From NCBI GenBank assembly GCA_003542655.1, contig DPKF01000031.1, positions 1 through 33,806 of the forward strand: a DNA stretch of 33,806 bases, given 5' to 3'. Position 1 is the first letter of the stretch. Each line of letters starts with the position of its first letter. Below, piece after piece: positions 1-30,403 of this stretch. The position numbers were made by a program, and so were the translations under genes. Below the pieces are notes generated by a model. It searched no databases and was not told the DNA's origin. It saw nothing but the letters and a program-made list of their open reading frames with translations. This stretch comes from Holosporales bacterium (lineage in GTDB: Bacteria; Pseudomonadota; Alphaproteobacteria; Paracaedibacterales; UBA11393).

Positions 1-765
1 TAAAGAACGTTCATAAGGTTTTTTCGGGCGCGGTTGGTCTTGTGGTAACAAAACATTTAAGTCATAAACACAATTTTCAAAATAAAAAAAAGATAGTTTT
101 TCTGTTGCTTTGTTCCACTCCTGTCTGTGGCCTTTAAACAACAATAAATTTAACATATTATTTTCTTTAATGAGTTGGCCTGTTTCTGCCGTAATAACGA
201 ATGGTAATTTGCCGTTTTCTGCAGATTGATGTATAAAGACCCCCTTTAATTGACCCTTTAAAGACCTTTCTTGCACATAGACAGTAGCACCTTTAATAGC
301 ATTAAATGTTCCTGGTTGAATCACTGATGATGACAGCTCATTTTTAATTTGGTGTTCAAAGGATCTAAATTTTTTAAAAGATTCAGGTATCAAAAATATA
401 TTACTTAGCAACGTAAGCACCGTTAAAACAACACCAATGCTTAAAAAAGGTTTTGCTATTTGAAAATTACTATAACCTGTGCTGCGTAAAACAAGCATTT
501 CATTATCAGCAATAAGTTTTTGATAAACTTGAATGCCCGCTATAAGTAAACAAATGGGAAGGAGAATAGAAATCAAATCAGGAAGCAGAAAAATAACAAG
601 AAATACATAAGACTTTAACCCAATACTGTTGTTGATAATAAGTTCTAAGAAGCGTAAAGACTGAGAAAGCCAAACCATGCCAATCACAAGAATGGATATA
701 CTAACAATATAAGCAATCAACATTTTAAAAATGTAGCGATCAATAGTATTAATACGAAGAAACAT
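1..765 (-). CDS. LptF/LptG-family (YjgP/YjgQ) LPS export permease, N-terminal 255 codons; 3' end runs off the window
   Basis: Absent from the ORF track because there is no in-window stop. My minus-strand translation from ATG at 765-763 gives MFLRINTIDRYIFKMLIAYIVSISILVIGMVWLSQSLRFLELIINN...LVLRSTGYS. This N-terminus and TM pattern are typical of LptF/LptG permeases. The frame stays open to position 1. Confidence 0.7.
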   Translation of the reverse strand, partial: MFLRINTIDRYIFKMLIAYIVSISILVIGMVWLSQSLRFLELIINNSIGLKSYVFLVIFLLPDLISILLPICLLIAGIQVYQKLIADNEMLVLRSTGYSNFQIAKPFLSIGVVLTVLTLLSNIFLIPESFKKFRSFEHQIKNELSSSVIQPGTFNAIKGATVYVQERSLKGQLKGVFIHQSAENGKLPFVITAETGQLIKENNMLNLLLFKGHRQEWNKATEKLSFFYFENCVYDLNVLLPQDQPRPKKPYERSL

Positions 766-860
766 GTTTTTCCTGTCGATCAAGGTGTAAAAAAACATTG
801 CCACAATGGTGTAACATTGTTTACTTTATATAGTATAAACATTAATGCCTTTGAACTAAA

Positions 861-2147
861 ATGAATTTTATGTCTAAACTGCTTTCTTATGGCAGTATTA
901 TTATCCTCTCTTTCTTATCCTGTGCTCAAACTTTTGGCTATGAAGCTAAAATTATTGCCGTTATTGATAAAAAAGCTATTACGGAAAAAGAATTAGAAGA
1001 TCGAATTCGCTTAGTCTTATTTACGTCTAATCAAAGTGACACACCTGAAATGCGCAATAAAATGCGTATGCAAATTTTAGAATCAATGATTATAGAAAAA
1101 CTACAGCTTAAAGCTGCAACCGATGGAAAAGTTGTTGTATCAAAAAAAGATATTCATCAAGCTATTGAAAATATTGCATCACAAAACAATATGAAGCACG
1201 ATCAACTTATGCAGATGTTTAAAGCAAATAATATTTCAATCCAATCATTAAAAGATCGTTTGCATGCACAATTAGCATGGGATGCTATTATTCATTATGG
1301 CCTTGGTGGCATCAATGTTTCAGAGAAAGAAATAGATAAAGCTTTGCATGCGGAAAAAGCATCAGACACCATTTTTGATGTTTCTGAAATCGTCCTGTAT
1401 CCATCAGATGCTTCTAAAAAAGCACAAACAAAAAAACAAGCCGAAGATATTGTGCAACAATTAAAAGCCGGTGCTTCCTTTAATGCACTAGCACAGCAAT
1501 TTTCGCAAAGCACAACGGCTAGAAGCGGCGGGCATTTAGGACGCTTATCATCTGCAAACTTATCTTTAGACTTACTTTCAGCTTTAAATAATATGAAAGA
1601 CGCAGATGTTCGTATTATTGAAATACCAAAAGGTCTTCAAATTATACGTTTGAACAGTAAAAACAAAATGACAGAAAATACGGCGACTACTGTCTCGTTC
1701 AAAGTCGCTTTAATTCCATTCGATGAAGGCATGCCAGAAGACCAACAATACGATATTCAGTCAAAAATTAACGCTCTACGCTTATCAACAAGTGTTTCTC
1801 AATTTATGAAATCATCTTCTGATATTGGGTTTGCAATTAAAACTGTTGAAGCGCTAGATATAGACAAGTCCTCATCTAAAGAATTTGCAGCTATGTTAAC
1901 ACAAGCAAAAGTTGGGGAAATATTAAAGCCTATTCGATACGAAGATGGGTTACAAGTAATATATATTACCAAGAAGGCTATCAAGCAACACCAACCTTTA
2001 ACGCGCAAAGAAGTTAAGCAACAGCTTGAATTTCAAAAGAAAAACATGACAGCTGCAATGTTTTTAAATAAATTACGTGCGCGCACATACATTATAAATA
2101 ATTTAAGCTGTGATTATGACAATAAATTTGTAACATACGGTGAATAA
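861..2147 (+). CDS. surA: SurA-like periplasmic chaperone / parvulin-type peptidyl-prolyl isomerase
   Basis: N-terminal signal peptide (LSYGSIIILSFLSCAQT). SurA-N-like helical region. Parvulin motif region GASFNALAQQFSQSTTARSGGHLGRLS...LQIIRL. Confidence 0.8.
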   Translation: MNFMSKLLSYGSIIILSFLSCAQTFGYEAKIIAVIDKKAITEKELEDRIRLVLFTSNQSDTPEMRNKMRMQILESMIIEKLQLKAATDGKVVVSKKDIHQAIENIASQNNMKHDQLMQMFKANNISIQSLKDRLHAQLAWDAIIHYGLGGINVSEKEIDKALHAEKASDTIFDVSEIVLYPSDASKKAQTKKQAEDIVQQLKAGASFNALAQQFSQSTTARSGGHLGRLSSANLSLDLLSALNNMKDADVRIIEIPKGLQIIRLNSKNKMTENTATTVSFKVALIPFDEGMPEDQQYDIQSKINALRLSTSVSQFMKSSSDIGFAIKTVEALDIDKSSSKEFAAMLTQAKVGEILKPIRYEDGLQVIYITKKAIKQHQPLTRKEVKQQLEFQKKNMTAAMFLNKLRARTYIINNLSCDYDNKFVTYGE

Positions 2148-2149
2148 TC

Positions 2150-3136
2150 ATGAAAAAATATAGCTTGCTGTTTCTATTACTAACGTCACTTCATATACAC
2201 GCTAATATCGGCGTTCTTTTGGGCGCGGGTAGCAATTTGATAGTTTCAAAAACTAATGCCATTACACTAAAATCTGAAAAGGTTCATTTTAAGTTTTCAA
2301 CGCCGAGGAAAATTGAAAAATGGGGAGTTGACGCTTTATCACTTGTTGATGTTAATACAACATTTCACACACAAAATGTATCCAGCAAAACACACAGTAT
2401 ACAACTTGGATTCCCCATCTCTTTCAACACAAGTGGAGAGAACATAGTACTGCCTGCGCTAAACTTTTCGGTGCTTTCTAATTGTATAAAACAAGAAACC
2501 ACTTTTACAAAAGCAATAAAAAAATATAAAAGTTTATACTCATGGTCAGAAACCTACAAACCTAAAGAAGTTAAAACGCTTAACGTGTCCTATAAACTGT
2601 ATACTTCAGTTATAGCACCTGGAATTATTTTTTTTCAAGACGATAAAATGCAAACGATCCCCGTCATGGTTTTTGGATTTGAATATATAACTGAAACAGC
2701 CAACTCCTGGAAAGGCAATATAAAAAATGCAGTGTTCACTGCAGATTTAACAGATTTTATTCAAGCGGTGGATGCTAATCCTCAAACTCTAGTATCTACA
2801 ACATCAGAACATCAGAATAATCGACTTTATTTAGCGTCCTCCACATTTAGGCCACTTATATTTTTAACTTTTGAAAAACATGGAAATCGTGTTGATCAGA
2901 ATACAATTCTATGGAACTTTACAAATGCAATGCCAGCAAAATCATTATTTATAGCGATTAATTATGCTTATGTGCCTATTACGTTAGAAGCAGTAAAGAA
3001 TTTTGTGTCTTTACTTCCAAAATCAGCCATATCAAGTCTATTACATCTCTATCAAGATGCTCTTGGGAAAACTTTAATTCCTGATGACAATAAAGAGATA
3101 CAGCTAATCATTGATTATTTAAACACGCAATTATAA
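2150..3136 (+). CDS. Secreted hypothetical protein, possibly DUF4424-like
   Basis: 328-aa ORF whose ATG lies 2 nt after the surA stop. Signal peptide MKKYSLLFLLLTSLHIHA. The N-terminal pattern AN..LLGAGSNLIV.K.NAI.L.SEKV.F resembles my recollection of alphaproteobacterial DUF4424 proteins. That family call is weak. Confidence 0.5.
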   Translation: MKKYSLLFLLLTSLHIHANIGVLLGAGSNLIVSKTNAITLKSEKVHFKFSTPRKIEKWGVDALSLVDVNTTFHTQNVSSKTHSIQLGFPISFNTSGENIVLPALNFSVLSNCIKQETTFTKAIKKYKSLYSWSETYKPKEVKTLNVSYKLYTSVIAPGIIFFQDDKMQTIPVMVFGFEYITETANSWKGNIKNAVFTADLTDFIQAVDANPQTLVSTTSEHQNNRLYLASSTFRPLIFLTFEKHGNRVDQNTILWNFTNAMPAKSLFIAINYAYVPITLEAVKNFVSLLPKSAISSLLHLYQDALGKTLIPDDNKEIQLIIDYLNTQL

Positions 3137-3176
3137 TACGAATGAAAAATAAAATTTTATATAGAGCTTGTTGTTA

Positions 3177-3752
3177 ATGTCTAAAAAAAAAGTATTTCAG
3201 ATTTTTATTTTTTTGGTTTTGGGTATTCTCGTATTAAAGTTTTTAACGTTTTATCATTCAATTCCGGCAATTCAGGATATAAAAGCCGTTGAAGAAACCG
3301 ATGCTATCGTTGTGTTTACTGGGGGGTATGAACGCGTTAAGGTTGCTGTTGATTTATTTGAAAAAGGCAAAGCGCGTTTATTATTCATATCAGGTGTTTC
3401 TAAAAAGTCTACTAAAAGCAGTGTTTTAAAAAAATCATGCGCTAATATAAATGACCTATCAATTGTCTACCTTGGCAGCGCAGAAAATACACAAGAAAAT
3501 GCTAAAGAAGTAGCTCAATGGGCCAGCACGCACAATGTTCAGTCAATTAGACTTGTAACAACTACTTTTCATATGCCACGGGCACTGAGGGAAATTAGAC
3601 TAAAGGCTGAAAATTTAACTGTGATTCCCCACCCCGTTGCCGCAGATAAAATATCCAACTACGCGGTTATATATTACTATTTTAGTGAGTTTATAAAACT
3701 AATATTACTTGAAATGGGGCTAGAATATCCTGAAAAACAATCAATTTTTTAA
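3177..3752 (+). CDS. YdcF/ElyC-family (DUF218) protein
   Basis: DAIVVFTGGYERVKVAVDLFEKGKARLLFISGV and SIRLVTTTFHMPRA are DUF218 hallmarks. One N-terminal TM helix. The track ORF starts at TTG 3168; I prefer the in-frame ATG at 3177 (MSKKKVFQ). Confidence 0.8.
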   Translation: MSKKKVFQIFIFLVLGILVLKFLTFYHSIPAIQDIKAVEETDAIVVFTGGYERVKVAVDLFEKGKARLLFISGVSKKSTKSSVLKKSCANINDLSIVYLGSAENTQENAKEVAQWASTHNVQSIRLVTTTFHMPRALREIRLKAENLTVIPHPVAADKISNYAVIYYYFSEFIKLILLEMGLEYPEKQSIF

Positions 3753-3755
3753 TGA

Positions 3756-4514
3756 CTATCCAAACATATTTTGCGGAGCCGTCGAAGCAGGTGCCGGGTT
3801 GTTAAAAAACATGTTATTACTTTGCTGGTCACTCATATCTTGAATTTTCTTGACAAGTGCACCATATTTTTTATCAACTATAGCATTAATTTTTGCCTCA
3901 AGTTCTGCATCAGTCATTGAAGGTGCAGCTGGCGCTGGTGGAGCAGGTGGCGCCATTGCTTTAACGTAAGTATATACGTTTTGCGTTATCGTCGCTATGG
4001 TATTAAGTGTTACCTGACTAAAAGCGATACCCATTTGCGCAAGATCGCTTTCCCTTTGTTTTTTAACTGCGTCTGAGGTTCTGCCGAGCATAGCAAATAT
4101 ATCATTTGTTTGATCTATGACGGTCACAACAGCTTGATATTGTTGTTGCTGATATAAGCCATTAAGTGCTGTTTTTTGTGCAGTCGTTGCATGTTGTAAA
4201 GCAGTAAATTGTGTTAATTTCTGCTGGGCTTGTTGCTGAATCGTGCCTTGTTGTTGTGTTTTTTGTAAATCCGTTTGGAATGTGTCTTGTGCACTTTTTG
4301 CAGCATCGCTTAGGCTTTTTGTGGAATTATACTCTTGCACGCCATTTTTTAGTGCAGCTTTAGCGGGATCAACATACTGCTGAATTTGACCTTTATTTTC
4401 ATCCCATGCTTTCGTCGCAGTCTGTTTAAGGTCATCTAACCAGCCTGCACAGATTGTATTATGCGTTAGAACGAAAATGCCTAAAAACGGCAGTACTTTT
4501 TTTTGAATAACCAT
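3756..4514 (-). CDS. Secreted Q-rich, probably helical hypothetical protein
   Basis: 252-aa ORF with an N-terminal hydrophobic signal (VLPFLGIFVLTHNTICAG). Long Gln-rich stretches (QKTQQQGTIQQQAQQKL, LYQQQQYQ). A PPAPPAPAAP proline tract. No family recognised. Confidence 0.6.
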   Translation of the reverse strand: MVIQKKVLPFLGIFVLTHNTICAGWLDDLKQTATKAWDENKGQIQQYVDPAKAALKNGVQEYNSTKSLSDAAKSAQDTFQTDLQKTQQQGTIQQQAQQKLTQFTALQHATTAQKTALNGLYQQQQYQAVVTVIDQTNDIFAMLGRTSDAVKKQRESDLAQMGIAFSQVTLNTIATITQNVYTYVKAMAPPAPPAPAAPSMTDAELEAKINAIVDKKYGALVKKIQDMSDQQSNNMFFNNPAPASTAPQNMFG

Positions 4515-4612
4515 AAAATATTCCAGCGTAAAATATAATTCTTTATTTTATACTGACATATGTAAATTAATAAAAAGTTAATATTGGTGCATTTATTCAG
4601 CAATCGCCATTT

Positions 4613-6658
4613 TTAATCTAACAAATCCTCCATTGTGACAATTTTTTCCCCTTTATGTGACGGAAATTTGTTGACAACGGCCGGTATTATAAGCGGTTTT
4701 TTCGGTGCGCCATCTTTTTCTTTATTTTTTGGATGATCAACAAGAGGTTTTGGCATATCTTCGGATGGAATTTTACCCAGTAAAAAGGCTTTTGCAATTT
4801 TAAGGGGCATATTAGACCCTAAAGATGATTTATGCATAAGCTTTAAGTCATCATTTCCAACCCAAACGCCAAATGCGACATCATGAATGCCATTTTCTAT
4901 TGCATCGTCACGGAATGTGCCACCACGATAACCAATAAAATAAGCATCTTTGTTATCATTCGATCCTGTTTTTCCCATCATTGTATCATCAATATAAATC
5001 CGACGGCCGGTTCCCTCCCTAACAACGCGCTGCAGCATGTCGCGAATGTGTGCTAAAGGTTCTTTTTGTACAATCGGCCTAGATCTTAGAGGTTTTTTTG
5101 TATATAAAATATTACCTGCTTTATCCCTAATTTCTTCAATTCCATAAGCATAAACGGGTTTTCCTTCGTTAGCAAAAACTGAAAAAGCCGATACCAGTTC
5201 AAGTAACGTTACCTCCATTGTGCCAAGTGCTATACTTAACGTTGGCAGCATATCGCTAGAAAATCCAAATCGATGTGATAAATCGATAACTTTTTCTGGT
5301 GTCACAGCCTGGCAGATACGAATAGATACGGCATTGACTGATTTAATTAACCCCAGTGCCATTGTGATTTCGCCTTGTGACTTATACTTATAATTTTTAG
5401 CCTCCCAAGAACCAATTTTTTGTGGGGCATCTTCAAACATCGTGTCCGGTGTTAGACCGTTTTCAAGCCCGGTCAAATATACAAATGGCTTAAAGGAAGA
5501 TCCAGGCTGACGTAATGCTTGTGTTGCCCTATTAAATTGCGATTTAGAATATGATCTGCCACCCAGCATCGCAACAATAGCACCGTCAGGACGCATAGCA
5601 ATCATTGCTGCTTGTGAGGCGTTTAATTCTTTGCCTAAAGTATCAACATAATATTTTAAAACAACCTCCGCATGATTTTGTGCATTAATATCAAGAGTTG
5701 TTGTCACCACAACATCTTTCGTAAGCCCGCCAATATGATCAGGAATAGACTCATAAATCCAGTCTGTAAAATATCTATAACTTTTTTCTTCCCTACTTTT
5801 TATAGCCTCTAGTTGTTTTGAACCTTCTTCTAAATACGTTGTATAATCACGGATATAACCCAAATCTTTCATCTTAGCCATAACAGATATAGCCCGTTTT
5901 TTTGACCGTTCAGGGTTTGCTGCTGGCGAATAACGTGATGGAGCTTGCAAAAGTCCTGCAATCAAGGCGGATTCAAAGACAGTTAAATTTCTAGCTGATT
6001 TTTGAAAAAATCGTTCTGCTGCAGCATCAATACCATACGTTCCAGATCCAAAATAAACACGGTTCAGATAAATTGTCATGATTTGATCTTTTGTAAAATT
6101 CCACTCAAGCCAAAAAGCAAGTAAAACTTCCTGAATTTTTCTTTTAATAGACCTGTCTGTAACAGGAAATAGTTTTTGCGTTAATAAAAAGTTTTTTGCT
6201 AATTGTTGTGTAATGGTCGATCCCCCCTGCACAACACGCCCTGCTTTATAATTACTGTACATTGCACGAAGAAGTCCTATAAGATCGACCCCAAAGTGTG
6301 AGTAAAAGCGATTGTCTTCAACTGCCATTAGTGCTTGTGGTAAGTGTGGCGGCAAGTCTTTTACGCGTAAAACATCTTCACGAAGATCACCATAGGTACT
6401 AAGCATTGTGCCATCGCTTGCTTGTATAATGACACTTGGTCGCCTGCCAGCTGTTTTTAGCGTATTAATATCAGGTAATTCTTGAAATAGCCAAAAAAGA
6501 ATAAAGCCACCAATCATAGATAACCAAAGGCCCACCATAAAAATGACCCGAAATAATTTTGATAAAATACCTTTTTTTGATTTTGTATTTTTTTTACTAG
6601 ATTGTTTTTTTCTTTGCAGCGTGCGTTTAGGTGCTTTCAATGTACTACGTGTCATCAT
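4613..6658 (-). CDS. mrcA: Class A penicillin-binding protein (PBP1A-type glycosyltransferase/transpeptidase)
   Basis: GT51 motifs EDNRFYSHFGVD and GGSTITQQLAKN. Transpeptidase SxxK (PGSSFKP) and KTG (GKTGSN). Basic N-terminus followed by a single TM anchor. Confidence 0.9.
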   Translation of the reverse strand: MMTRSTLKAPKRTLQRKKQSSKKNTKSKKGILSKLFRVIFMVGLWLSMIGGFILFWLFQELPDINTLKTAGRRPSVIIQASDGTMLSTYGDLREDVLRVKDLPPHLPQALMAVEDNRFYSHFGVDLIGLLRAMYSNYKAGRVVQGGSTITQQLAKNFLLTQKLFPVTDRSIKRKIQEVLLAFWLEWNFTKDQIMTIYLNRVYFGSGTYGIDAAAERFFQKSARNLTVFESALIAGLLQAPSRYSPAANPERSKKRAISVMAKMKDLGYIRDYTTYLEEGSKQLEAIKSREEKSYRYFTDWIYESIPDHIGGLTKDVVVTTTLDINAQNHAEVVLKYYVDTLGKELNASQAAMIAMRPDGAIVAMLGGRSYSKSQFNRATQALRQPGSSFKPFVYLTGLENGLTPDTMFEDAPQKIGSWEAKNYKYKSQGEITMALGLIKSVNAVSIRICQAVTPEKVIDLSHRFGFSSDMLPTLSIALGTMEVTLLELVSAFSVFANEGKPVYAYGIEEIRDKAGNILYTKKPLRSRPIVQKEPLAHIRDMLQRVVREGTGRRIYIDDTMMGKTGSNDNKDAYFIGYRGGTFRDDAIENGIHDVAFGVWVGNDDLKLMHKSSLGSNMPLKIAKAFLLGKIPSEDMPKPLVDHPKNKEKDGAPKKPLIIPAVVNKFPSHKGEKIVTMEDLLD

Positions 6659-6899: not shown

Positions 6900-7493
6900 A
6901 TGTCGTTTCCGTACAATAATCCACTCCACAACACAAGCTTTAGTGAACCAGTACCCAATATAAAAGATATTTTATTCCATTCAGATATGGATTCTGGAAC
7001 ATTGACCCCTACATGGATGTTAAAAATGGATGATGTATTTGAAGACATGTCAGAAATGGAAGTTGACGGTGGTACAATGTTTAACCCCTGCTTTGGGTTT
7101 AAAATGTTTGCACGTCGTCAAGTAAGCGGCTATCGATTAACACAAAATTATGCCAATTCGCGCGTCCACCATTCGCGCATTTGGTTTGTTGTGCCACTTG
7201 ATAACAGTACGCCAACCCTCTTCAACTATATGCATAATGGAAAAATTATTGAATCAACATCAATTGTGCGCCTTATTAATATTGGCGGAGAAGAATACAA
7301 CCAAATTATGTGGCAAGCAACTTTTGAGAATTCGCACCTAGAGCATGTTGAAATTATTCGTGATTATGTGATGATCGCCTTATCAGTCTCCACTGGAGAG
7401 CAAAAAGTCTTTAAATATAACAAAGATGGAACAAAAGGTGGTCAAGCTGTGTCAAGCTATGACTATGCAACAAATACTGGTGAAAAAGAATAA
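6900..7493 (+). CDS. Divergent Hcp-like protein (type VI secretion tube family); possible shorter form starting at ATG 7017
   Basis: Core motifs line up with Hcp proteins as I recall them. FVVPLDNSTPTLFNYMHNGK matches the ..iDkaSPnLmkya.tGK block. GGEEYNQIMWQATFENSHLEHV matches GG..leYl.itmedv.vt.v. GGQAVSSYDYATN matches the C-terminal GG.v..gYD.kaN. MLKMDDV resembles the mFLKidgi N-terminus. Starting at M40 (7017) would give 158 aa, close to the Hcp lengths I recall (about 160 aa). Confidence 0.55.
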   Translation: MSFPYNNPLHNTSFSEPVPNIKDILFHSDMDSGTLTPTWMLKMDDVFEDMSEMEVDGGTMFNPCFGFKMFARRQVSGYRLTQNYANSRVHHSRIWFVVPLDNSTPTLFNYMHNGKIIESTSIVRLINIGGEEYNQIMWQATFENSHLEHVEIIRDYVMIALSVSTGEQKVFKYNKDGTKGGQAVSSYDYATNTGEKE

Positions 7494-20289: not shown

Positions 20290-21495
20290 TTATGGCAGTG
20301 CACAAACTGCAGGACAGCTGTTACCAATACTTGAGTATAGACTTTCAATCACAACGAAAGCCACCACAGCAGAAAAACTGATAATAAAGGTTGGATAATC
20401 ACAATTTCTTTTAACGATGGCAAATTCAATACGCAAAGCGCTCATAATGAAATACCCCATAATAAAGCTATAAGTTAAGATGCCCATCAAAGGTGTAAAA
20501 TCAAAGAATGGTAGTTTTCTAATAGCAAGACCGCCAACAATCATTGATGATAAAAATATTTGGCGTACTAAGCTAGAACGGCCAGAAAATGTATTTGCAA
20601 GCGTAATGGATTCACAAAATACCAAAGCACCAATCACAACTGTTATCATGATCAATTCAAAAGATCCACCTGATTTAAATAAAGTCTCTAAATGCAAGCC
20701 AAAGAAAAAATGCACAATACCTAAAATTGCTAGATTAGAACCATATAATAGGGGACCATGTGGCATTTCTTCAATCATATTGCGTGCTGCACGCTTTTCA
20801 AAAATATAGTTAAATACAAAGCCAAGGCTTAGTACACCAAAAACGACAAGCAATAAATGCTCTAAGTTTCCAAGATATAAATTTTTTATTTTTTTAGATG
20901 CAAACGGTAAATACTCTAAAACAAACGGAACGCCTTTAATTAACAAATATCCAAAAGAAGCGCCACTGATTATGGAATATCGCTTCCGTGAATCTGTAGA
21001 GAAAAATCCTTTTGCAAGTGCCGCAATCCATTGCATGGCAACAATCAACAATGCACAGGAAGCAACAAGTATAACACCATACGCATCTGCTGCTGCAGCT
21101 TCTTTTTTTGCAACCGAACGTTGTATTGGTTGTAATATTTCTGTTTTCAAGTCTTCATTTGTCAAAACTTCCACCTTGTTTGCGTTTACCGCTTCACCAG
21201 AATTGTCTGATTGTTGCGTTTCACTGTCAGGTAGGGCAGAAACGTCACCAGATGGCATATTTTGCTCACCATTCCCAGATGACGATGCATCGTATGGATT
21301 ATTAGGTGGCACGTCTCCATCCCCAGATGAAGGTTCTGATGAACCATAAGGATTACTAGAGGCTGCCTCACCATCTGCAGATGCTGATGTTCCATAAGGA
21401 TTATCTGCACTTGAATTCATCTGCCCCCCCTCATTCGCATCCGGAGCACTTGATTCAGCACTATTTCCATACATTCCATTTTCAGTTGTAGACAT
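20290..21495 (-). CDS. Polytopic membrane protein with a disordered N-terminal tail carrying NPY(G/D) repeats
   Basis: 401-aa ORF. The first roughly 140 aa are S/N/G/P/D-rich with NPYGTSAS, NPYGSSEPS and NNPYDASSS. The rest is about 7-8 hydrophobic helices. No family recognised. Confidence 0.6.
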   Translation of the reverse strand: MSTTENGMYGNSAESSAPDANEGGQMNSSADNPYGTSASADGEAASSNPYGSSEPSSGDGDVPPNNPYDASSSGNGEQNMPSGDVSALPDSETQQSDNSGEAVNANKVEVLTNEDLKTEILQPIQRSVAKKEAAAADAYGVILVASCALLIVAMQWIAALAKGFFSTDSRKRYSIISGASFGYLLIKGVPFVLEYLPFASKKIKNLYLGNLEHLLLVVFGVLSLGFVFNYIFEKRAARNMIEEMPHGPLLYGSNLAILGIVHFFFGLHLETLFKSGGSFELIMITVVIGALVFCESITLANTFSGRSSLVRQIFLSSMIVGGLAIRKLPFFDFTPLMGILTYSFIMGYFIMSALRIEFAIVKRNCDYPTFIISFSAVVAFVVIESLYSSIGNSCPAVCALP

Positions 21496-23755: not shown

Positions 23756-24130
23756 TTACTCTTCTAGTATAGGCGCTTCATCTTCTAGAGATCCAGCATC
23801 AAGTTCCATACCTGAAAGATCTTCATGGGCATCCCACTCTTCTTGCTCTTCCAACATAAGTTCTTGTGTATCATTATCAATGTCTTCTTCTGCTGTTTGA
23901 GAAAACAAATTATATTGCAGCGATTTAATAAGGCTGGCTTTTAAAGCTTCATAATTAATTGTTTCTGACGCTATCTCACGCAAGGCAACAACTGGATTTT
24001 TATCATGATCACGTGGCACTGTCAAAGCAGAACCAGCTGCAATTTCGCGCGCCCTTTTTGTTGCAAGCAACACAAGCTCAAAACGTGAAGGGACAAGTTT
24101 AATACAATCTTCAACCGTAACGCGAGCCAT
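23756..24130 (-). CDS. rpoZ: DNA-directed RNA polymerase subunit omega
   Basis: [30 protein letters not shown] is the canonical RpoZ N-terminus. It lies directly upstream of spoT, a conserved pairing. Confidence 0.93.
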
Positions 24131-24424
24131 AATAATACCTTGAATAAAATTTTAGAATATAGATCAAGATACCATAAATTTTTAGGCAATTCAAGCAATT
24201 TCAACAAACCGTGCATTGCAAAAATGCCTTAAAAAACCCCGTTTCGGGATTAACTGTAAAGTTCTAGATAGTAGCGGTTTAAAAGTAGGTACTTTGTAAG
24301 CGTTTAACTGTTTTGGTCAATAATGTTTAAAAGTGGTGTCATTAAAAATGTAGAATTTATAGACTAGGCAACCAAATGGCCGAAAAAGTAGGCTTTCTTA
24401 CCAGGGGGACTAAAAGTATGCGGT

Positions 24425-24931
24425 TCACAAATAGTCTTTTGCCCAATTTTCACTATAATATGCAGGGTCTTCGTGATAAAGCCGCCAAATAAATTGCTCA
24501 AAAGAATCTTCTATTTTAATGTTTGTATACACTGTATAAACAGCATTGGGATGAAGGCTCTCTGGTTTCATAATCAAAAAATTAGAGCTGTCATGAATTT
24601 CAAAAAAGGGAAGATCTCCGGGTTGTAACATTTCGTAGGTGTCTTGAGAAATTAATCCAGAATCATGACCATTTTTTACCATGTCTACAATCATGCTAGG
24701 AGGATTTATACGATTAACACTATAAAAGATGTAATCTTTGTCAAATTTTATAGGATGAGTTAAAAAACCATAACCAATTTCTCTATAAAATTGTCTTAAT
24801 TCACTTGGGAAAGTAATCCCTAATTCTTTTTCTGCTTTTTTAATTTCTATATCATCTATTCGATAAAAAGAATTACTGGGTTTGGTTAAATTTCTAGGCG
24901 AGTCCATAAACTGATTTAAATATTTATACAT
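24425..24931 (-). CDS. SMI1/KNR4 (SUKH-1) family immunity protein
   Basis: IDDIEIKKAEKELGITFPSELRQFYREIGYGFL is the SUKH/SMI1-KNR4 signature. I start it at ATG 24931 (MYKYLNQ), which has AAGGAG 7 nt upstream. The track start at 25039 would overlap the toxin gene by 97 nt. Confidence 0.8.
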   Translation of the reverse strand: MYKYLNQFMDSPRNLTKPSNSFYRIDDIEIKKAEKELGITFPSELRQFYREIGYGFLTHPIKFDKDYIFYSVNRINPPSMIVDMVKNGHDSGLISQDTYEMLQPGDLPFFEIHDSSNFLIMKPESLHPNAVYTVYTNIKIEDSFEQFIWRLYHEDPAYYSENWAKDYL

Positions 24932-24942
24932 TGCATAGCTCC

Positions 24943-25758
24943 TTATGATAAAGTTCTTAGAATTTCCATAAGCCGTGACGCTGATCCGTGCAAGATTTCT
25001 TGGTGCATTGGTGTGGCTGCTGGATGCATGTTCCACCATTCGTGAGGCCCTTTTACTTGTTGGGGAATTATGTGATGGGCTTGAAATTGTGTATCACTCT
25101 TAGCAATCAACTTTCCATCTTTACCAAGAACATCTTTTGTATACTTAGGCCAGTCTCGTACCTTGGTTGTGCCGCCCATATGTTCCCAATCTTTTATTAA
25201 TTTCTGCCTTGTAGCGGGAGTGAAATTATTTGAATGTGACGCTTTCTCGCCTACAGACAGTTTCTCAAATTGTTTGTTCTTTAAGCAATAGTCTATCAGC
25301 TGTTTTTTTTGCTCTATCGTAATTTTTCTACCTGTAGTTATTTCAACTTCTCTCAATGCTGTACGTAACTCTGTACCGGGAACTTCTCGTGCATTTCCAT
25401 TGGCTGCCGTTTGTTTAGCATTTTTTATGACCGCGTTTGCTTCTTTTTTTTGCATAATATGTTTTGCAAATACTTGTCCGGCCTTAAGGGCTGATTCAGC
25501 AGCAACCTGTACAGTGCTCTGCGGTGCCGCCGAAGACTTGACAGCAGCAGGTGCAGCTCCGTTATGTCCAGCAGCACCGCCTCTGCTTACTATACCACCT
25601 GTACCCTGTGCTTTCATAGAGCTTTGTGTTGGGATAGTATGGCCCATTGTCCTTGCGATGTCTGCCCTAACTGTGGTGGCACCTATGCTAACCAAAAGAC
25701 CTAAAAGGAGTCTGAAAAATAGATTGTAACGAAAACCTATCTTGTTTTGAAACGTCAT
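24943..25758 (-). CDS. Secreted HNH (beta-beta-alpha-Me) nuclease toxin, colicin-DNase/AHH-like
   Basis: Signal peptide (LFFRLLLGLLVSIGATTVRA). Ala/Gly-rich linker. The C-terminal FQAHHIIPQQVKGPHEWWNMHPAATPMHQEILH aligns by eye with the colicin E9 H-N-H motif [33 protein letters not shown] (recalled). A SUKH immunity gene follows. Confidence 0.75.
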   Translation of the reverse strand: MTFQNKIGFRYNLFFRLLLGLLVSIGATTVRADIARTMGHTIPTQSSMKAQGTGGIVSRGGAAGHNGAAPAAVKSSAAPQSTVQVAAESALKAGQVFAKHIMQKKEANAVIKNAKQTAANGNAREVPGTELRTALREVEITTGRKITIEQKKQLIDYCLKNKQFEKLSVGEKASHSNNFTPATRQKLIKDWEHMGGTTKVRDWPKYTKDVLGKDGKLIAKSDTQFQAHHIIPQQVKGPHEWWNMHPAATPMHQEILHGSASRLMEILRTLS

Positions 25759-25847
25759 AATGAGGTTTTTAGTCCTTTGTCGTGCTGGCCTCTAGTGCCG
25801 CGATTTCTTCCTCAGATTTAAGCAATTTTTTTAAATTGTTTATCCTA

Positions 25848-26594
25848 TCAATCATACAACCCACCAAGTTGTTTTGTAATAAGCTCTTTAGGCACAAGGG
25901 GATAGTCTACCATCACATCTAAGCCCTTAAAGCGTGCAAGATTCACAACAGCAAGTGGCCAAAAGGCGATCACCTCATCAACAGTGCCACCAAAAATGCC
26001 TTGGGGGGTGCTTAACCGTTTGTGACCCTTGATCATGGTAGCGAATCCAGAAAGGAACTTTTCCTTATCGTGATCGTAAATTGCTTGAAAGCAAAGCGCA
26101 TACCCAACATAGGATTTTAATCTTTTAGCAAATATTATTTCCATATCATTTAAATCTGCACGTGTACCATCTTGGCCCAGAATAAAAAGGCGAAAAGCTT
26201 TATGGCAGTGTTTTGCAAGTGGTCCAGTTTTTTTTAAGTTAATATTTAAAAACCTTTTCACTATATTTTTGATCAAATCTAAATCTTGGGTGCATAACGT
26301 TTCAAAGATTTTGTCAAAAGCTGGAGCGCTTACAAATTCATAATCTTCTGGATATTCACCTGCATCACGTTTATCAAGCATTTTGTTTTGATAATGCACA
26401 ACCTGTTTCATATGATCAATGAAACCCTGAACATCGTGATCCAGAACATAGGAACATACGGCGAAAAAACGGTGATCATCCATATACCAATACCATGTAC
26501 GTGGATCGTCTTCTCCTTTTTCTTCTTTTCTCTTGTTATGTTGCTCTAAATATTCAATCTTTAAATCGGATAATCTTTCTTGCAAATCTCCCAT
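25848..26594 (-). CDS. Putative immunity protein (family unassigned) paired with the truncated toxin domain upstream
   Basis: 248-aa cytoplasmic-looking, probably helical protein. Its ATG is 1 nt after the toxin stop, and an AGGAGA Shine-Dalgarno sits inside the toxin's last codons (CAATTAGGAGAATAATATG). The assignment rests on position only. Confidence 0.5.
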   Translation of the reverse strand: MGDLQERLSDLKIEYLEQHNKRKEEKGEDDPRTWYWYMDDHRFFAVCSYVLDHDVQGFIDHMKQVVHYQNKMLDKRDAGEYPEDYEFVSAPAFDKIFETLCTQDLDLIKNIVKRFLNINLKKTGPLAKHCHKAFRLFILGQDGTRADLNDMEIIFAKRLKSYVGYALCFQAIYDHDKEKFLSGFATMIKGHKRLSTPQGIFGGTVDEVIAFWPLAVVNLARFKGLDVMVDYPLVPKELITKQLGGLYD

Positions 26595-26595
26595 A

Positions 26596-27027
26596 TTATT
26601 CTCCTAATTGTGGGGCATGGGGCAAATCAACTTTCGTCCAAGAATTATGGCCACTTGCATCTGTGACATTCACACGACGACGGATTAAGCCTAGGTTATT
26701 TTCTAAAATTTTTGCTGTTGATTTTAATGTTGGATCTTCTATTTTTTTCATATCCCTGATCTTTGCTAAAACCCAAGGTTCACTCATTTGTGTAACCTCG
26801 TTAACATTTTTAGCCATGCTTGCATTTCCTGATGTTGCATATTTTGATTCTACAATAATAATGTCAGCGGGTACACCCGGTTTTTCCCATTTTACAAATA
26901 CACCATCAAACCCCTTATTACCTGGTAGTTTAGATTCAAGTTTTACATAACCGGCACGAAGCATCGTTGCTTCACCGGCTGCCTCTCCAATTGCCCCTTT
27001 AACTTGGGCAACACGGGCGTTTAACAT
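26596..27027 (-). CDS. 5'-truncated (orphan) toxin C-terminal domain with a PD-(D/E)xK restriction-endonuclease-like motif
   Basis: GAIGEAAGEATMLRAGY...GFDGVFVKW...ADIIIVESKY gives a D...ExK arrangement. The frame stays open upstream of the first Met into antisense IS630 sequence, with no SD. So the delivery part of the gene is missing. Confidence 0.55.
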   Translation of the reverse strand: MLNARVAQVKGAIGEAAGEATMLRAGYVKLESKLPGNKGFDGVFVKWEKPGVPADIIIVESKYATSGNASMAKNVNEVTQMSEPWVLAKIRDMKKIEDPTLKSTAKILENNLGLIRRRVNVTDASGHNSWTKVDLPHAPQLGE

Positions 27028-27029
27028 AG

Positions 27030-27481
27030 GTGTGGGGAGAGAAAGGAAAACGTCAGCGCATTTTAAAAGACCTTCGTTTTAAGTATACCTATATTTATGG
27101 TGCAATATGTCCGGAGCGCGATACGGGTGAGGCCATTATCGTTAATGAAGTTTCAAAAGTAGCTATGGAAAAACATCTGATGCTGTCAGTAAAATTATTC
27201 CAATAGATCGACATGCTCTCATGGTTATGGATAAAGCGCCGTGGCACAGATTTTTAAATGTTCCTAAAAATATCACGATTGTTCATTTACCTTCGTATAG
27301 TCCAGAACTGAATCCACATGAAAACATTTGGGAATATATGAAAAATAACTTTCTCTCAAATCGTGTGTTTAATACTGTGGATGATATCCTTGAGGCGTGT
27401 TGTGAGGCATGGAATAAACTTACTGCTGAGAAAGGACGTATCACTTCTATTGGAACTAGAACTTGGGCAAACATTACCTAA
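27030..27481 (+). pseudogene. IS630-family transposase, C-terminal part only, frameshifted
   Basis: My translation gives VWGEKGKRQRILKDLRFKYTYIYGAICPERDTGEAIIVNEVSKVAMEKHL in one frame. It then continues as DAVSKIIPIDRHALMVMDKAPWH...LPSYSPELNPHENIWEYMK (DDE catalytic region) in another frame. The switch is at about 27179. The N-terminal roughly 150 aa are missing. Confidence 0.8.
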
Positions 27482-27717
27482 AATTTTATGAAAATGGTAT
27501 GATAAGCATCTGGATACTTTTCAATATCCTGCTTTAGAGCATCCATATCTATTTTTGTGGCCGGCTTATGACGAGTGGCATGTGGTTCAATCTTTTTTGA
27601 CCAACGAAATAAGGTCGCCATAGAAATATTAAATAATTGGGAGATTTCTAGAAAGGTTAAATTTTGATCAGCTTTAATGCTAAAAATCTTGCGGCGCAAA
27701 TCTAAGGAGTAAGTCAT
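27478..27717 (-). pseudogene. IS630-family transposase, N-terminal HTH fragment only
   Basis: MTYSLDLRRKIFSIKADQNLTFLEISQLFNISMATLFRWSKK...LKQDIEKYPDAY matches IS630 N-terminal HTH regions. Similarity stops after PDAYH (about 27499), where it meets the end of the opposite-strand fragment. Confidence 0.8.
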
Positions 27718-27839
27718 GGAATAGTGGCTAAATAATATTATTATACCTCATTTTATACTGGTTTAGCTATATCATACACATAAAAACACAGAACCAGTAA
27801 AAATTTTTCATCCCGAATTGGGGCCTTGTGCAAGCGATG

Positions 27840-28091
27840 TTACAGTACCTCAATTTGTATAGCATGCAACCCTTTTTTTAAAACAACATCTAACGCATGA
27901 TATATTTTTTGATGGATTTGAATTTTTGTTAGCGAGCTAAAAGATTCAGATTTAATTGAAATTTTAACATGCGTTATACCTGTATCGCTTCCCTCGTAAT
28001 GATCAGCGTGCTTATATGAATGGTCTTCTATCTTCAAAACATCAGGGGACAATATGTTTAACGCCTCTTCAATTTCTAATAAAGTAATCAT
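27840..28091 (-). CDS. BolA-family protein
   Basis: 83 aa. The pattern ...HVKISIKSESFSSLTKIQIHQKIYHALDVVLKKGLHAIQIE matches BolA (H.f.v.ivs..F.g....rH..vy..l....iHAl). Confidence 0.85.
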   Translation of the reverse strand: MITLLEIEEALNILSPDVLKIEDHSYKHADHYEGSDTGITHVKISIKSESFSSLTKIQIHQKIYHALDVVLKKGLHAIQIEVL

Positions 28092-28159: not shown

Positions 28160-29032
28160 ATGAAAAAAATATATAGACAAAAAACACTTCAAGCCCCTGT
28201 AAGGTTACAAGGGATTGGCGTGCATTCCGGCACTTCTATAAATCTAGCGCTCATGCCCGCATCTGTTGATCACGGCATCAAATTTCAAAGAACAGATGTT
28301 GATGCGCATAATCTTATTGAGGCAACCTATAACCTTGTATCAGACACAAAAATGTCGACAACGCTAACCAATGAAAATGGTGTTAGCATTTCAACTGTAG
28401 AACATCTCATGGCAGCGCTTTCTGGTTATGGAATTACCAATTGTCTTATTCAAGTATCAGGCTCTGAAATACCCATTATGGATGGAAGTGCCCAAAATTT
28501 TTGTCATGCTATCCAGACAGCGGGTATAAAAACACAAGAAAAATCGACTCAATCTGTTAAAGTATTAAAGACGATTCGTGTCACAGCGGGAACGTCTTGG
28601 GCAGAATTATCCCCATCTTCAGAGCGCACCTTTACAATTAATTTTGATTTTTCAAACCGCTTGCCAAGCACACTGAAACAATCAAAAGATATAACGTTCA
28701 ACCTAGAAGACGAAGATTTTCATTTATTATTTGCAAAAGCACGCACTTTTGGGTTATTTGAGGATGCACAAAAGGTACAAGCTATGGGCCTTGCAAAAGG
28801 CGCAAGCTTAGACAATACAATTATTATTAAAGATGAGGGCGTCTTAAACCCCGAAGGGCTCCGTCACCCAGATGAGTTTTCACACCATAAAATATTGGAT
28901 GCTATCGGCGATTTAGCTTTATGTGACCAAACCATAATGGGTGCTTACACTGCTTATAATGGATCACATGACCTAAACAACAAACTACTGCGTGCACTTT
29001 TTAATACGCCAAGTGCATGGAAAAACACTTAA
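28160..29032 (+). CDS. lpxC: UDP-3-O-acyl-N-acetylglucosamine deacetylase LpxC
   Basis: MKKIYRQKTLQAPVRLQGIGVHSG...TVEHLMAAL...HHKILDAIGDLAL. I start it at ATG 28160, which matches the LpxC N-terminus, rather than the track's upstream non-ATG start at 28124. Confidence 0.93.
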   Translation: MKKIYRQKTLQAPVRLQGIGVHSGTSINLALMPASVDHGIKFQRTDVDAHNLIEATYNLVSDTKMSTTLTNENGVSISTVEHLMAALSGYGITNCLIQVSGSEIPIMDGSAQNFCHAIQTAGIKTQEKSTQSVKVLKTIRVTAGTSWAELSPSSERTFTINFDFSNRLPSTLKQSKDITFNLEDEDFHLLFAKARTFGLFEDAQKVQAMGLAKGASLDNTIIIKDEGVLNPEGLRHPDEFSHHKILDAIGDLALCDQTIMGAYTAYNGSHDLNNKLLRALFNTPSAWKNT

Positions 29033-29036
29033 AAAC

Positions 29037-29249
29037 ATGAGTATTCAAAAACGCTCACTCACTCTATTTTCACACAGGACAAGCATTAGCTTAGAACCTG
29101 ATTTTTGGCATGCCTTAAATGATATAGCAAAAAACAAGCAATTATCGCTTCAAAAACTTATTGAACTTATTGACCAGCAACGAGAAAATAATAATTTATC
29201 ATCTGCTATCCGGATATATGTTCTACACTATTTTCAAAAAAATATATAA
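29037..29249 (+). CDS. Ribbon-helix-helix domain protein (RHH_4-like)
   Basis: SHRTSISLEPDFWHALNDIAKNKQLSLQKLIELID....NLSSAIRIYVLHYF matches the RHH_4 pattern. I start it at ATG 29037 (MSIQKRSL). The longer track ORF would overlap lpxC. Confidence 0.75.
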   Translation: MSIQKRSLTLFSHRTSISLEPDFWHALNDIAKNKQLSLQKLIELIDQQRENNNLSSAIRIYVLHYFQKNI

Positions 29250-29296: not shown

Positions 29297-30403
29297 TCAC
29301 GAATTTAAAATAAAATTTAACATCATTGCTAAAGACTTCATCGCCCTATTACGGACGCCCTCTAAACAACCACCATTTTCTTTATAGTTTTCCATTATTT
29401 GCTGTAAAACAAGATATTTAAGCGTGCCAAAAGTGGTATCACCATCAAGCGCCTTAAGCTCATCTAAAATAGAAATTGTATAAGCCACAAGTGATAAAAC
29501 TTTAGGGCGATTTGCCGCTTGCATTACTGCACCCGCAATCCATCTTTCTCCTGCTTCAGCTGAAAAACCATGTTGCGCTTGTACGCTATCATCTGGAAAA
29601 TGGCTCATAAAACGAAAAAGCACTTGATAAACTTCAGAACGCTTAGGGCCTTCTGCTTCTGCTGCAGCTTCTTCCTTGTAGTCAGCCTTACCAAAACCCA
29701 TATCGTTTGCTACTTGTAATAATGCATCAATATTTGCTGCACAAAAATCGTCATGCTGATGCACATCACCAAAAGTATTAATCTGTGTCAGAACGGATGC
29801 AACAACTTGACGCATATCAGACACTTTAGGATGCCTGCGTGCAGATAACATTTTAATAACAACTAATTCTCTTGCTGCATTAGCAACAGCATATTGTGCT
29901 GGTAAAGGAATACCAAATAATACATGCTTAATATGGGCTATATCACTTGATGAAAAATGATCACCAAGAGCGGCAGTTATATTATCGGGACCAATCGCTT
30001 CCAACGCCCCTAAAATGATACCTGCCTGTTTTAATTTTTCTGCAAGAGATTCTGGCAATTCTGGTGCTGCATGTCTAACAGACCTTGTGCCTTCTGGCCT
30101 CACCGATAGTGCAGCAGGCGCAGCTGCTTCAGGATGTGCAAATAAAACGCTAGAAATAACTGCTAAATCATGCTGTGACAATCCGCTATCAGAAAATACA
30201 GCACGGACGTCCTCAGCATTATGAAATTGTCTTAAAACATCAGCGTGAATATCATTTTCTATCAGTTTGAACACTAATGCACTTGGTAGCCCCTCAATTC
30301 CATATTGTGCTGCAATAGATTGCTCTAGCGCATCATCATCTGATGCAAATACCTGTGTCATCAGTGTTGTAACGAACACCATTTTAAAAAAAACTTTTTT
30401 CAT
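29297..30403 (-). CDS. Secreted hypothetical protein with an internal roughly 52-aa duplication
   Basis: Signal peptide MKKVFFKMVFVTTLMTQVFA. Two related segments, LPSALVFKL...SQHDLAVISSVLFAHP and LPESLAEKL...SSSDIAHIKHVLFGIP. Good AAGGA SD. No family recognised. Confidence 0.6.
   Translation of the reverse strand: MKKVFFKMVFVTTLMTQVFASDDDALEQSIAAQYGIEGLPSALVFKLIENDIHADVLRQFHNAEDVRAVFSDSGLSQHDLAVISSVLFAHPEAAAPAALSVRPEGTRSVRHAAPELPESLAEKLKQAGIILGALEAIGPDNITAALGDHFSSSDIAHIKHVLFGIPLPAQYAVANAARELVVIKMLSARRHPKVSDMRQVVASVLTQINTFGDVHQHDDFCAANIDALLQVANDMGFGKADYKEEAAAEAEGPKRSEVYQVLFRFMSHFPDDSVQAQHGFSAEAGERWIAGAVMQAANRPKVLSLVAYTISILDELKALDGDTTFGTLKYLVLQQIMENYKENGGCLEGVRNRAMKSLAMMLNFILNS

Follow-up and report, generated by a model that had tools for sequence, protein, structure and literature searches.

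A probable polymorphic-toxin locus with two nuclease toxin/immunity modules, inserted between rpoZ and bolA in a Holosporales lineage

In this work, we have analysed a stretch of 33,806 nt from a metagenome-assembled genome (MAG) of a Holosporales bacterium (contig DPKF01000031.1, assembly GCA_003542655.1), hereafter the window. Between the conserved genes rpoZ and bolA it carries an accessory island with two pairs of toxin and immunity genes, Tox2 with SUKH and Tox1 with an Imm49-like gene, and the debris of IS630 insertion sequences. We consider it likely that this island is a small polymorphic-toxin locus with two nuclease toxin/immunity modules, acquired by one Holosporales lineage. The features that define polymorphic toxins are found here and in the relatives of these genes: a C-terminal toxin domain on secreted proteins, an immunity gene downstream of the toxin, and the swapping of N- and C-terminal parts. 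The island and the genes that it carries are the following (lengths in amino acids, aa; ORF, open reading frame):

24209-27839, no strand: accessory island, an insertion of 3631 bp (3.63 kb) between rpoZ and bolA
24425-24934, minus strand: SUKH (SMI1/KNR4) immunity gene, predicted cognate of Tox2; 169 aa from M36 (longest ORF 24425-25039)
24943-25758, minus strand: Tox2, putative free-standing toxin of 271 aa with a leader (residues 1-34), an Ala/Gly-rich linker and a C-terminal HNH nuclease domain
24946-25389, minus strand: C-terminal toxin domain of Tox2 (residues 124-271), predicted DNase of the HNH / EndoVII fold, Rhs2-CT type
25657-25819, minus strand: shared leader cassette, 61 bp upstream of the Tox2 ATG plus codons 1-34
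25848-26594, minus strand: Imm49-like immunity gene, predicted cognate of Tox1; 248 aa
26596-27027, minus strand: Tox1, orphan, 5'-truncated C-terminal toxin module of 143 aa, predicted PD-(D/E)xK nuclease domain

Results

Tox2 and its SUKH partner

The C-terminal 148 residues of Tox2 belong to a family of 81 proteins, which the databases name HNH endonuclease or toxin of the YeeF-YezG module. Among 23 homologues, residues H228, H229, G237, W241, W242, N243, P246, H252 and H257 are invariant or nearly so, and A227 is kept in at least 90%; weak HNH matches were obtained with 13 of these 23 family members. Among the invariant residues, H228, H229, N243, H252 and H257 give the HH ... N ... H pattern of the beta-beta-alpha-metal motif of HNH / EndoVII nucleases. 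The family profile matched PDB entry 8cm0 (E 1.8e-10) in two stretches that cover most of the domain. This entry is the C-terminal toxin (CT) of Rhs2 of Serratia marcescens, an atypical HNH DNase that degrades the DNA of bacteria as well as that of fungal nuclei (bioRxiv 10.1101/2025.10.28.685041). Tox2 shares with the Rhs2-CT of strain Db10 both the W-E...WP segment and the HHIIP...GG...WWN.(H)P...H core. Rhs2-CT, however, travels on an Rhs/PAAR scaffold through a type VI secretion system (T6SS), depends on EF-Tu and has the helical protein RhsI2 as its antidote, whereas Tox2 has a putative Sec leader and is followed by an unrelated SUKH gene. These comparisons would place Tox2 in the HNH superfamily and in the Rhs2-CT family, outside the Pfam HNH and AHH models, and they predict a nuclease activity for it.

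At the other end of the protein, residues 1-34 (MTFQNKIGFRYNLFFRLLLGLLVSIGATTVRA|DI) include a basic n-region. The hydrophobicity of Tox2 is highest at residues 17-27 (LLLGLLVSIGA), a stretch followed by VRA|D, in which V-R-A fits the -3/-1 rule, and the N-terminus may be read as a Sec-type leader. The sequence-only reading of this DNA had seen no recognisable delivery scaffold, and indeed no CdiB, two-partner secretion (TPS) domain, FHA or RHS repeats, PAAR or VgrG occurs in the window; what that reading had missed is the leader of Tox2. In one relative of Tox2, P0006, the Tox2-type domain is immediately preceded by a VENN motif (TAVENNF), and another, P0176, shows a weak PT-VENN match, which suggests that CdiA-type proteins use the same toxin domain.

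The gene that follows Tox2 is a member of the SUKH superfamily, with 44.7 bits against Pfam SMI1_KNR4 (cut-off 25.4) and 39.2 bits against SUKH_6. Its start is likely M36, because an AAGGAG motif stands 7 nt upstream of the ATG at 24934, directly after the Tox2 stop; the distance from that stop to the ATG is 8 nt. Independent gene calls on two other assemblies gave a SUKH protein of 168 aa. The protein is 73-75% identical to the SUKH protein that follows the Tox2 homologue P0005 in the related locus L006.

Tox1 and its Imm49-like partner

Pfam and NCBIfam scans of Tox1 gave no match, a word-indexed protein search returned only two relatives beyond its own database entry, and searches of the PDB with single sequences gave chance-level matches only, so that family profiles were needed. 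One relative, P0002 (DIC42_06900), is a longer, partial paralogue in the same MAG, with an upstream region unlike that of Tox1. A profile search of 1.84 billion representative proteins then recovered 337 relatives of the domain at E <= 1e-3. Among the 150 relatives listed, nearly all have the domain as their extreme C-terminus, and their lengths range up to 4158 aa; those that it closes include proteins of 2162, 3730, 4158, 2349 and 1209 aa. The long scaffolds carry RHS repeats (P0052, P0035), Phage_GPD/VgrG with DUF6531 and RHS (P0098), or DUF637 (P0022).

An alignment of 31 sequences shows no variation at G39, D41, E60, K62, G67, Q80 and W85, and at least 90% of the sequences have E15; the pattern E15...D41...E60-x-K62...Q80 is the signature of PD-(D/E)xK nucleases. 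Single members of the family gave weak Pfam matches to HamA/DUF1837 (9 of 25), to Mrr_cat (5 of 25) and also to UPF0102. An AlphaFold2 model built on the 31-sequence alignment reached a predicted local distance difference test (pLDDT) score of 94.7; an earlier run with three aligned sequences (pLDDT 38) was discarded. In the model E15 lies on helix 2-24, D41 opens strand 42-49, and E60 and K62 are in strand 52-63, in agreement with the catalytic E ... D ... (D/E)xK on an alpha-beta-beta-beta-alpha-beta core that marks the superfamily. The best PDB matches of this model in Foldseek are almost all PD-(D/E)xK proteins (SPARDA, SfsA, YraN 3fov, Hjc 1gef, MspJI and CdiA-CT 4g6v). By its conserved residues and its predicted fold, Tox1 would be a PD-(D/E)xK nuclease domain of the Tox-REase-1/6 or PoNe-like kind; it appears to keep the whole domain with every catalytic residue, and DNase activity is predicted for it.

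The family profile of Tox1 also matched PDB 9waq_B, the PoNe DNase VP14465 (E 0.0036), in its N-terminal half only. VP14465 is a PoNe DNase effector of the T6SS of Vibrio parahaemolyticus (PMC13377157, PMC6688995). As in PoNe/PoNi (V12_14465) and in Tox-REase-1 and -6, a PD-(D/E)xK DNase domain stands at the C-terminus of toxins of type V, VI and VII secretion systems (T5SS, T6SS, T7SS), and K10-x3-G14-E15, G39-[FI]-D41-x2-[FY] and E60-x-K62 of Tox1 match most of the PoNe motif Kx3GE...GIDx2Y...ExK. Unlike PoNe, Tox1 has Ile in place of the conserved Tyr that stands four residues ahead of the ExK glutamate, and while the PoNe partner is PoNi (DUF1911/DUF1910) the neighbour of Tox1 is Imm49-like. 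Membership of the PoNe family was rejected on these two points, and the comparison of motifs and profiles points to a relationship that is real and distant. The signature of Tox-REase-1 and -6 consists of E, D, ExK and Q, to which Tox-REase-6 adds Y (PMC3482391). Tox1 has the corresponding residues E15, D41, E60xK62 and Q80 as well as an Imm49-like partner and, by residues and neighbour, is a candidate member of these families. Neither Tox-REase-1 nor Tox-REase-6 has a Pfam model, which explains the empty domain search with Tox1.

The partner gene starts 1 nt after the Tox1 stop, with an AGGAG motif inside the 3' end of Tox1. The gaps of 1 nt and 8 nt and the Shine-Dalgarno motifs indicate that both pairs are arranged for translational coupling, with the toxin first. 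The product of the partner gene gave a sub-threshold match to the C-terminal 60% of the Imm49 model (PF15575, 27.2 bits, E 3.4e-06). The best full-length relative of Tox1, the 2162-aa protein P0008, is directly followed by a gene for a 242-aa protein that is 46% identical over 246 aa to the Imm49-like protein, and locus L005 shows the same pairing of a Tox1-type with an Imm49-like gene. Imm49 is listed as a partner of Tox-REase-1 and Tox-REase-6 (PMC3482391), and this published pairing, together with the recurrence after P0008, supports an immunity role for the Imm49-like protein. The profile searches that the sequence-only reading had proposed as a check thus assign the four proteins to toxin and immunity families and not to housekeeping families.

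A two-gene layout of toxin and then antidote is also that of a toxin-antitoxin operon, and relatives of Tox1 weakly match HamA/DUF1837, as Tox1 itself does in PADLOC (HamA, E 0.024). The pairs could on these grounds be intracellular type II toxin-antitoxin modules, or a HamA-like anti-phage defence of the Hachiman type, and not secreted toxins. We find this highly improbable. Rhs, VgrG and DUF637 proteins carry the Tox1 domain at their C-terminus; by its sequence features Tox2 is equipped with a signal peptide, and in its relatives the domain comes after VENN; each toxin gene precedes its immunity gene; and both SUKH and Imm49 are families of immunity proteins against polymorphic toxins (PMC3482391). 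We saw no defence partner such as a HamB helicase, and PADLOC gave nothing for the remaining three proteins. Membership of the Hachiman or another anti-phage defence system was rejected, as the HamA match is marginal and the helicase is missing.

IS630 debris and the truncated end of Tox1

Beyond Tox1 lie the remains of two IS630 copies:

27030-27481, plus strand: IS630 remnant A, 3' part only (transposase model positions ~164-299), with a change of frame between 27206 and 27221
27030-27206, plus strand: remnant A, piece 1, model positions 164-213
27221-27481, plus strand: remnant A, piece 2, in another frame, positions 227-299; Pfam DDE_3, 42.4 bits
27478-27717, minus strand: IS630 remnant B, N-terminal helix-turn-helix (HTH) part only, 79 codons; HTH_Tnp_IS630, 51 bits, positions 1-72 of 119

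The two pieces of remnant A scored 68.2 and 18.5 bits against NCBIfam transpos_IS630, and its DDE_3 match covers profile positions 83-145 of 146; remnant B is in the opposite orientation. An intact transposase has ~300-340 aa with both HTH and DDE_3, and all pieces are under the NCBIfam cut-off of 100, so that judging from these sequences none of the three could give a working transposase.

The Tox1 ORF starts ~9 residues before the conserved KGxxGE helix, with nothing N-terminal left. Upstream of its ATG, the reading frame runs into the reverse complement of the IS630 fragment, and the 25 nt before the ATG are pyrimidine-rich, with no Shine-Dalgarno motif. Since the Tox1 start abuts remnant A at 27027/27030 and remnant A is itself cut at transposase position ~164, the two truncated features point to a single deletion in which the toxin gene lost its 5' part and the insertion sequence (IS) its 5' half. 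We propose that copy B first landed in a larger toxin gene or upstream of it, that copy A then inserted into B in reversed orientation, and that a deletion finally ran from inside A into the toxin gene. The arrangement of the remnants is consistent with this history of two insertions and a deletion at the end of Tox1.

Related loci, mosaicism and selection

Both ends of Tox2 have counterparts joined to something else. The leader cassette is 88.3% identical over 163 bp to positions 5442-5604 of locus L007 (ENA ERZ27315062 k141_1619995, 1-6464), which comes from the same sample as one of the copies of the window. There the cassette heads P0007, a 305-aa protein whose C-terminus is unrelated to Tox2. 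P0007 repeats a ~60-residue pre-toxin segment of a 1181-aa DUF637 protein encoded upstream on L007, which suggests that P0007 is an orphan-type module with an acquired leader. The toxin end has a different relative: window positions 24456-25547, that is, the Tox2 toxin region and SUKH, are 85% identical in DNA to L006, where the toxin domain of P0005 (396 aa) is 83-90% identical to that of Tox2 and its N-terminus is unrelated. The 5' end of P0005 abuts an IS30 remnant (NCBIfam transpos_IS30, E 5.6e-10), and IS-linked truncation of toxin genes would thus be a recurrent event. Such swapping of leaders and toxin ends, for which these sequence comparisons give two or three examples, each seen once, appears to be the recombination pattern that defines polymorphic toxins.

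The two related loci deserve a description of their own. L007 is a larger polymorphic toxin locus with the 1181-aa DUF637 protein, a protein of 330-346 aa, a SUKH gene and then P0007; the 330-346-aa protein ends in DHLHELQLGG...N and looks HNH-like by eye only. In L006 (1080-3461; ENA ERZ937901, rock porewater) P0005 is followed by SUKH and by a second, partial SUKH gene, a small poly-immunity array beside accD. An exact-pattern scan of JGI metagenome contigs returned no leader cassette; the sequence of the window itself was also missing from that scan, from which we conclude that the collection lacks this organism.

The ratio of nonsynonymous to synonymous substitutions (dN/dS), computed against L006 and L005 and averaging both lineages, is 0.19 for the Tox2 toxin region, 0.24 for SUKH, 0.22 for Tox1 and 0.41 for the Imm49-like gene. 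In amino acid identity the immunity proteins are behind their toxins (SUKH 73% vs Tox2 90%; Imm49 50% vs Tox1 75%). Taken from the alignments, these values are consistent with functional proteins in which the immunity specificity would evolve faster.

They also bear on the view that the whole island is a decaying, non-functional remnant, the pseudogenised cargo of a past IS-mediated insertion. For such decay speak the three dead IS630 fragments, the 5' truncation of Tox1 with its loss of a ribosome-binding site, and the promoter- and terminator-like sites of the region, which are no commoner than in shuffled sequence. That all of it is dead seems to us improbable, as the four ORFs are intact with every catalytic residue kept, dN/dS is 0.19-0.24 for Tox2-CT, SUKH and Tox1, the translational coupling signals of both immunity genes are intact, and the identical block is found in three assemblies.

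Genomic setting of the island

The island is flanked by conserved genes:

23756-24130, minus strand: rpoZ (TIGR00690, 62.6 bits; Pfam RNA_pol_Rpb6, 58.9 bits)
27840-28091, minus strand: bolA (Pfam BolA, 64.8 bits)

Further out, spoT lies on the rpoZ side and lpxC on the bolA side, as the sequence-only reading had noticed when it described a block set among core housekeeping genes, and every element that it had described, the two minus-strand toxin/immunity pairs and the broken IS630 copies, is present. The remaining genes of the window are also housekeeping and flagellar export genes, namely surA, a class A penicillin-binding protein (PBP) gene, flhA, lpxB, dut, pal-like and tolC-like genes, leuS, flhB, fliR and rplU. 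NCBI labels the source of the window as a Holosporales MAG, with locus tags DIC42_00990 and DIC42_01000, and the identical block is also present in two more independent assemblies, one from ENA (sample ERZ27315062) and one from JGI (3300001605), three in all.

Congeners were found by scanning GTDB species genomes with SpoT, which gave L008 (PFNE01000012.1) and L062 (CAZTIE010000007.1), both with 90% SpoT identity to the window. In both, the gene order is fliR-flhB-hyp-RHH-lpxC-bolA-rpoZ-spoT-hyp-leuS (hyp, hypothetical gene; RHH, ribbon-helix-helix), with identities of 89-91% for rpoZ and 72-77% for bolA. The spacing between bolA and rpoZ is only 115-117 bp in these congeners and the block is absent, which makes the island accessory; the synteny comparison that the sequence-only reading had called for thus bears out its proposal. 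In blastn, homology to L008 and L062 ends at 24208, 78 bp upstream of the rpoZ ATG, and on the other side at 27840, the bolA stop, with ~35-40 bp of congener sequence replaced by the island. The earlier limits of 24425-27765 were right in location and slightly too narrow in extent. L062 is labelled a Verrucomicrobiales MAG, yet the contig is syntenic and ~90% identical over spoT, rpoZ, flhB and fliR, and by its sequence it is probably a mis-binned Holosporales-like contig.

The GC content of the island (37.7%) is the same as that of the window (37.0%), which suggests that the island probably was acquired from a relative or is a long resident. A repeat search revealed no terminal inverted repeats or target duplications delimiting the island or the IS copies, and promoter-like and terminator-like sites in the region did not exceed their frequency in shuffled sequences. 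By eye, a 4-bp GC hairpin with a T-run is visible at ~24231-24249 (minus strand), downstream of SUKH, and is too weak to claim as a terminator.

Other features of the window

Close to the island, on the far side of bolA, the minus-strand gene at 29297-30403 codes for 368 aa with a signal-peptide-like N-terminus and no Pfam or NCBIfam match. The protein is 48-56% identical in the two congeners, versus ~90% for neighbouring genes, and looks like a fast-evolving secreted protein. Next to it, a ribbon-helix-helix gene at 28992-29249 (plus strand; Pfam RHH_4, 82 bits) has 41 nt in common with the 3' end of lpxC and is 71-82% identical in both congeners. Three further ORFs, of 401 aa (20290-21495, minus strand), 328 aa (2150-3136, plus strand) and 252 aa (3756-4514, minus strand), gave no Pfam match at E <= 1e-5 and no NCBIfam match at E <= 0.01; the 401-aa ORF is 70-72% identical in the congeners.

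Discussion

How would such a locus work? Our proposal is that the two modules differ in their state. The module of Tox2 and SUKH looks complete: Tox2 would leave the cytoplasm by its Sec leader, its HNH domain would cut DNA in a recipient cell, and SUKH, made from the same transcript, would bind and neutralise Tox2 in the producer and its kin. The module of Tox1 and the Imm49-like gene would be an orphan, a silent reservoir that could recombine back onto a delivery scaffold. Tox1 is probably silent, as it has neither an export signal nor a ribosome-binding site, and the Imm49-like protein may still protect against kin that deploy a full-length toxin of the P0002 type. A polymorphic toxin locus with one complete and one displaced module is what the sequence-only reading had suggested; the completeness of the Tox2 module and the position of Tox1 beside the IS debris, as an orphan, support it. 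The targets are most likely competing bacteria of the same or related lineages.

Several observations weigh against this proposal. In a Gram-negative cell a Sec leader takes a protein only to the periplasm, and we found no outer-membrane route or delivery apparatus in the window and no T5SS, T6SS or T7SS component in the island. The leader of Tox2 was judged on sequence features only, and the Shine-Dalgarno-like AAGGA of this gene is ~13 nt before its ATG, which is far. Some of the family assignments also come from scores below the usual limits. Tox2 reached 17.7 bits against Pfam HNH (PF01844; cut-off 21.4) and 14.4 bits against AHH (PF14412; cut-off 22.3), the 27.2 bits of the Imm49-like protein are below the curated cut-off of 30.1, so that it is not formally a member of the Pfam family, and the Foldseek scores of the Tox1 model are weak, with a best E of 1.2e-3 and template modelling (TM) scores of 0.43-0.46. 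The GC content of L007 is 42.5% vs 37% for the window, and the two may come from different organisms. Finally, dN/dS compares lineages and is no proof that the copies in the window are expressed.

With respect to delivery, the window contains a plus-strand ORF of 197 aa (6900-7493) that is weakly like the T6SS tube protein Hcp/TssD (TIGR03344, 18.2 bits, E 0.0018; PDB 5xeu Hcp1, E 0.0039). It sits between the class A PBP gene and a sigma-54 activator/flhA, 17 kb from the island. If real, it would hint at a T6SS by which Tox1-type toxins could be delivered.

By its name the MAG belongs to the Holosporales, whose members are endosymbionts of protists, and this could speak for a different direction of attack, in which the modules would be host-directed or host-addiction modules: a DNase, and possibly its antidote, would be exported into the eukaryotic host, and loss of the symbiont would kill the host. 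The same role, which resembles that of the Wolbachia Cin/Cid factors, was proposed by Midha et al. for the polymorphic toxins of Ca. Bodocaedibacter vickermanii (PMC8163844). Among solved structures the closest homologue of Tox2 is Rhs2-CT, which also enters the nucleus of fungal cells and kills them, and the weak Foldseek matches of Tox1 include the nuclease domains of CidB and CinB. In its specific form, Tox2 would act on the eukaryotic host and constitute, with the SUKH antidote, a symbiont-retention (addiction) module; the 163-bp leader cassette would in that case serve as a movable export tag by which an orphan toxin module becomes a free-standing effector directed at the host. We regard a host-directed role in general as unlikely, and the retention module as unlikely too. 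Immunity genes next to the toxins, together with orphan modules, are the mark of conflict between bacteria, and host-directed toxins of intracellular bacteria are typically without immunity genes (PMC3482391). The immunity proteins of the island have no export signal, its absence from two congeners means that it is not a fixed part of any symbiosis, and a host-directed role presupposes an intracellular lifestyle, which is presumed for this MAG. We accordingly keep to a polymorphic-toxin locus aimed most likely at other bacteria.

Comparable systems are known from related organisms. In Odyssella, an amoeba endosymbiont, full polymorphic toxin systems comprise both toxins and immunity proteins, and some are Sec-dependent (PMC3482391); Ca. 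Bodocaedibacter vickermanii, a member of the Holosporales and endosymbiont of Bodo saltans, has three polymorphic toxin systems (PMC8163844). The sequence-only reading had held that such nucleases would be notable in an intracellular symbiont; with polymorphic toxins of protist endosymbionts already published (PMC3482391, PMC8163844), they are less so. Such loci are variably present among Holosporales (PMC12999062). The first polymorphic toxin system (PTS I) of Bodocaedibacter contains the orphan CPBP_00211, a DUF1837/PF08878-like toxin, with CPBP_00210 (Imm49), and also an AHH nuclease toxin (PMC8163844). Going by the published description, our island resembles it in the order concerned, in the orphan pairing of a PD-(D/E)xK (HamA/DUF1837-like) toxin with Imm49, and in the presence of an AHH/HNH nuclease toxin in the same locus. 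Unlike here, the Bodocaedibacter orphans lie downstream of a full-length multidomain toxin; our island has no full-length toxin, its Tox2 is free-standing with a putative Sec leader, and IS630 debris marks its boundary.

Two wider classes of systems show partial likeness. In contact-dependent inhibition (CDI; CdiB/CdiA/CdiI) and Rhs orphan arrays, displaced modules of toxin domain and immunity gene are likewise kept as orphans, the Tox2-type domain of P0006 follows VENN, and DUF637 proteins carry both toxin types in related contigs. Unlike CDI and Rhs loci, the window is devoid of the scaffold and transporter elements listed above, and a DUF637 protein occurs only on L007. Membership of a CDI system was rejected, as neither CdiB nor a CdiA with TPS domain and FHA repeats is present in the window, the island included. 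The second class is that of the small Sec-dependent toxins (the type II secretion system or 'T2SS' class of Zhang et al. 2012, with MafB of Neisseria, and Odyssella), in which a signal peptide is the sole trafficking element and, as in Tox2, the C-terminal toxin is variable and has its immunity gene next to it. Unlike MafB, Tox2 has no DUF1020 N-terminal domain, and its conserved N-terminal part comprises only ~34 residues and 61 bp of upstream DNA.

What does the island add to our understanding of these systems? Polymorphic toxin systems, including the pairing of Tox1-type toxins with Imm49, have already been reported in related endosymbionts, and current understanding is unchanged. Modestly new are the exact insertion site, seen against congeners without the island, the IS630-linked origin of the orphan module, and the short leader cassette common to two unrelated toxins. 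The Tox1 domain defines a PD-(D/E)xK toxin family without a Pfam model, with at least 337 representative sequences regularly paired with Imm49-like genes, which should be useful for annotation. The locus itself would bring together three events: the IS-linked truncation of a toxin gene, the movement of a toxin and immunity module between N-termini, and the sharing of a leader.

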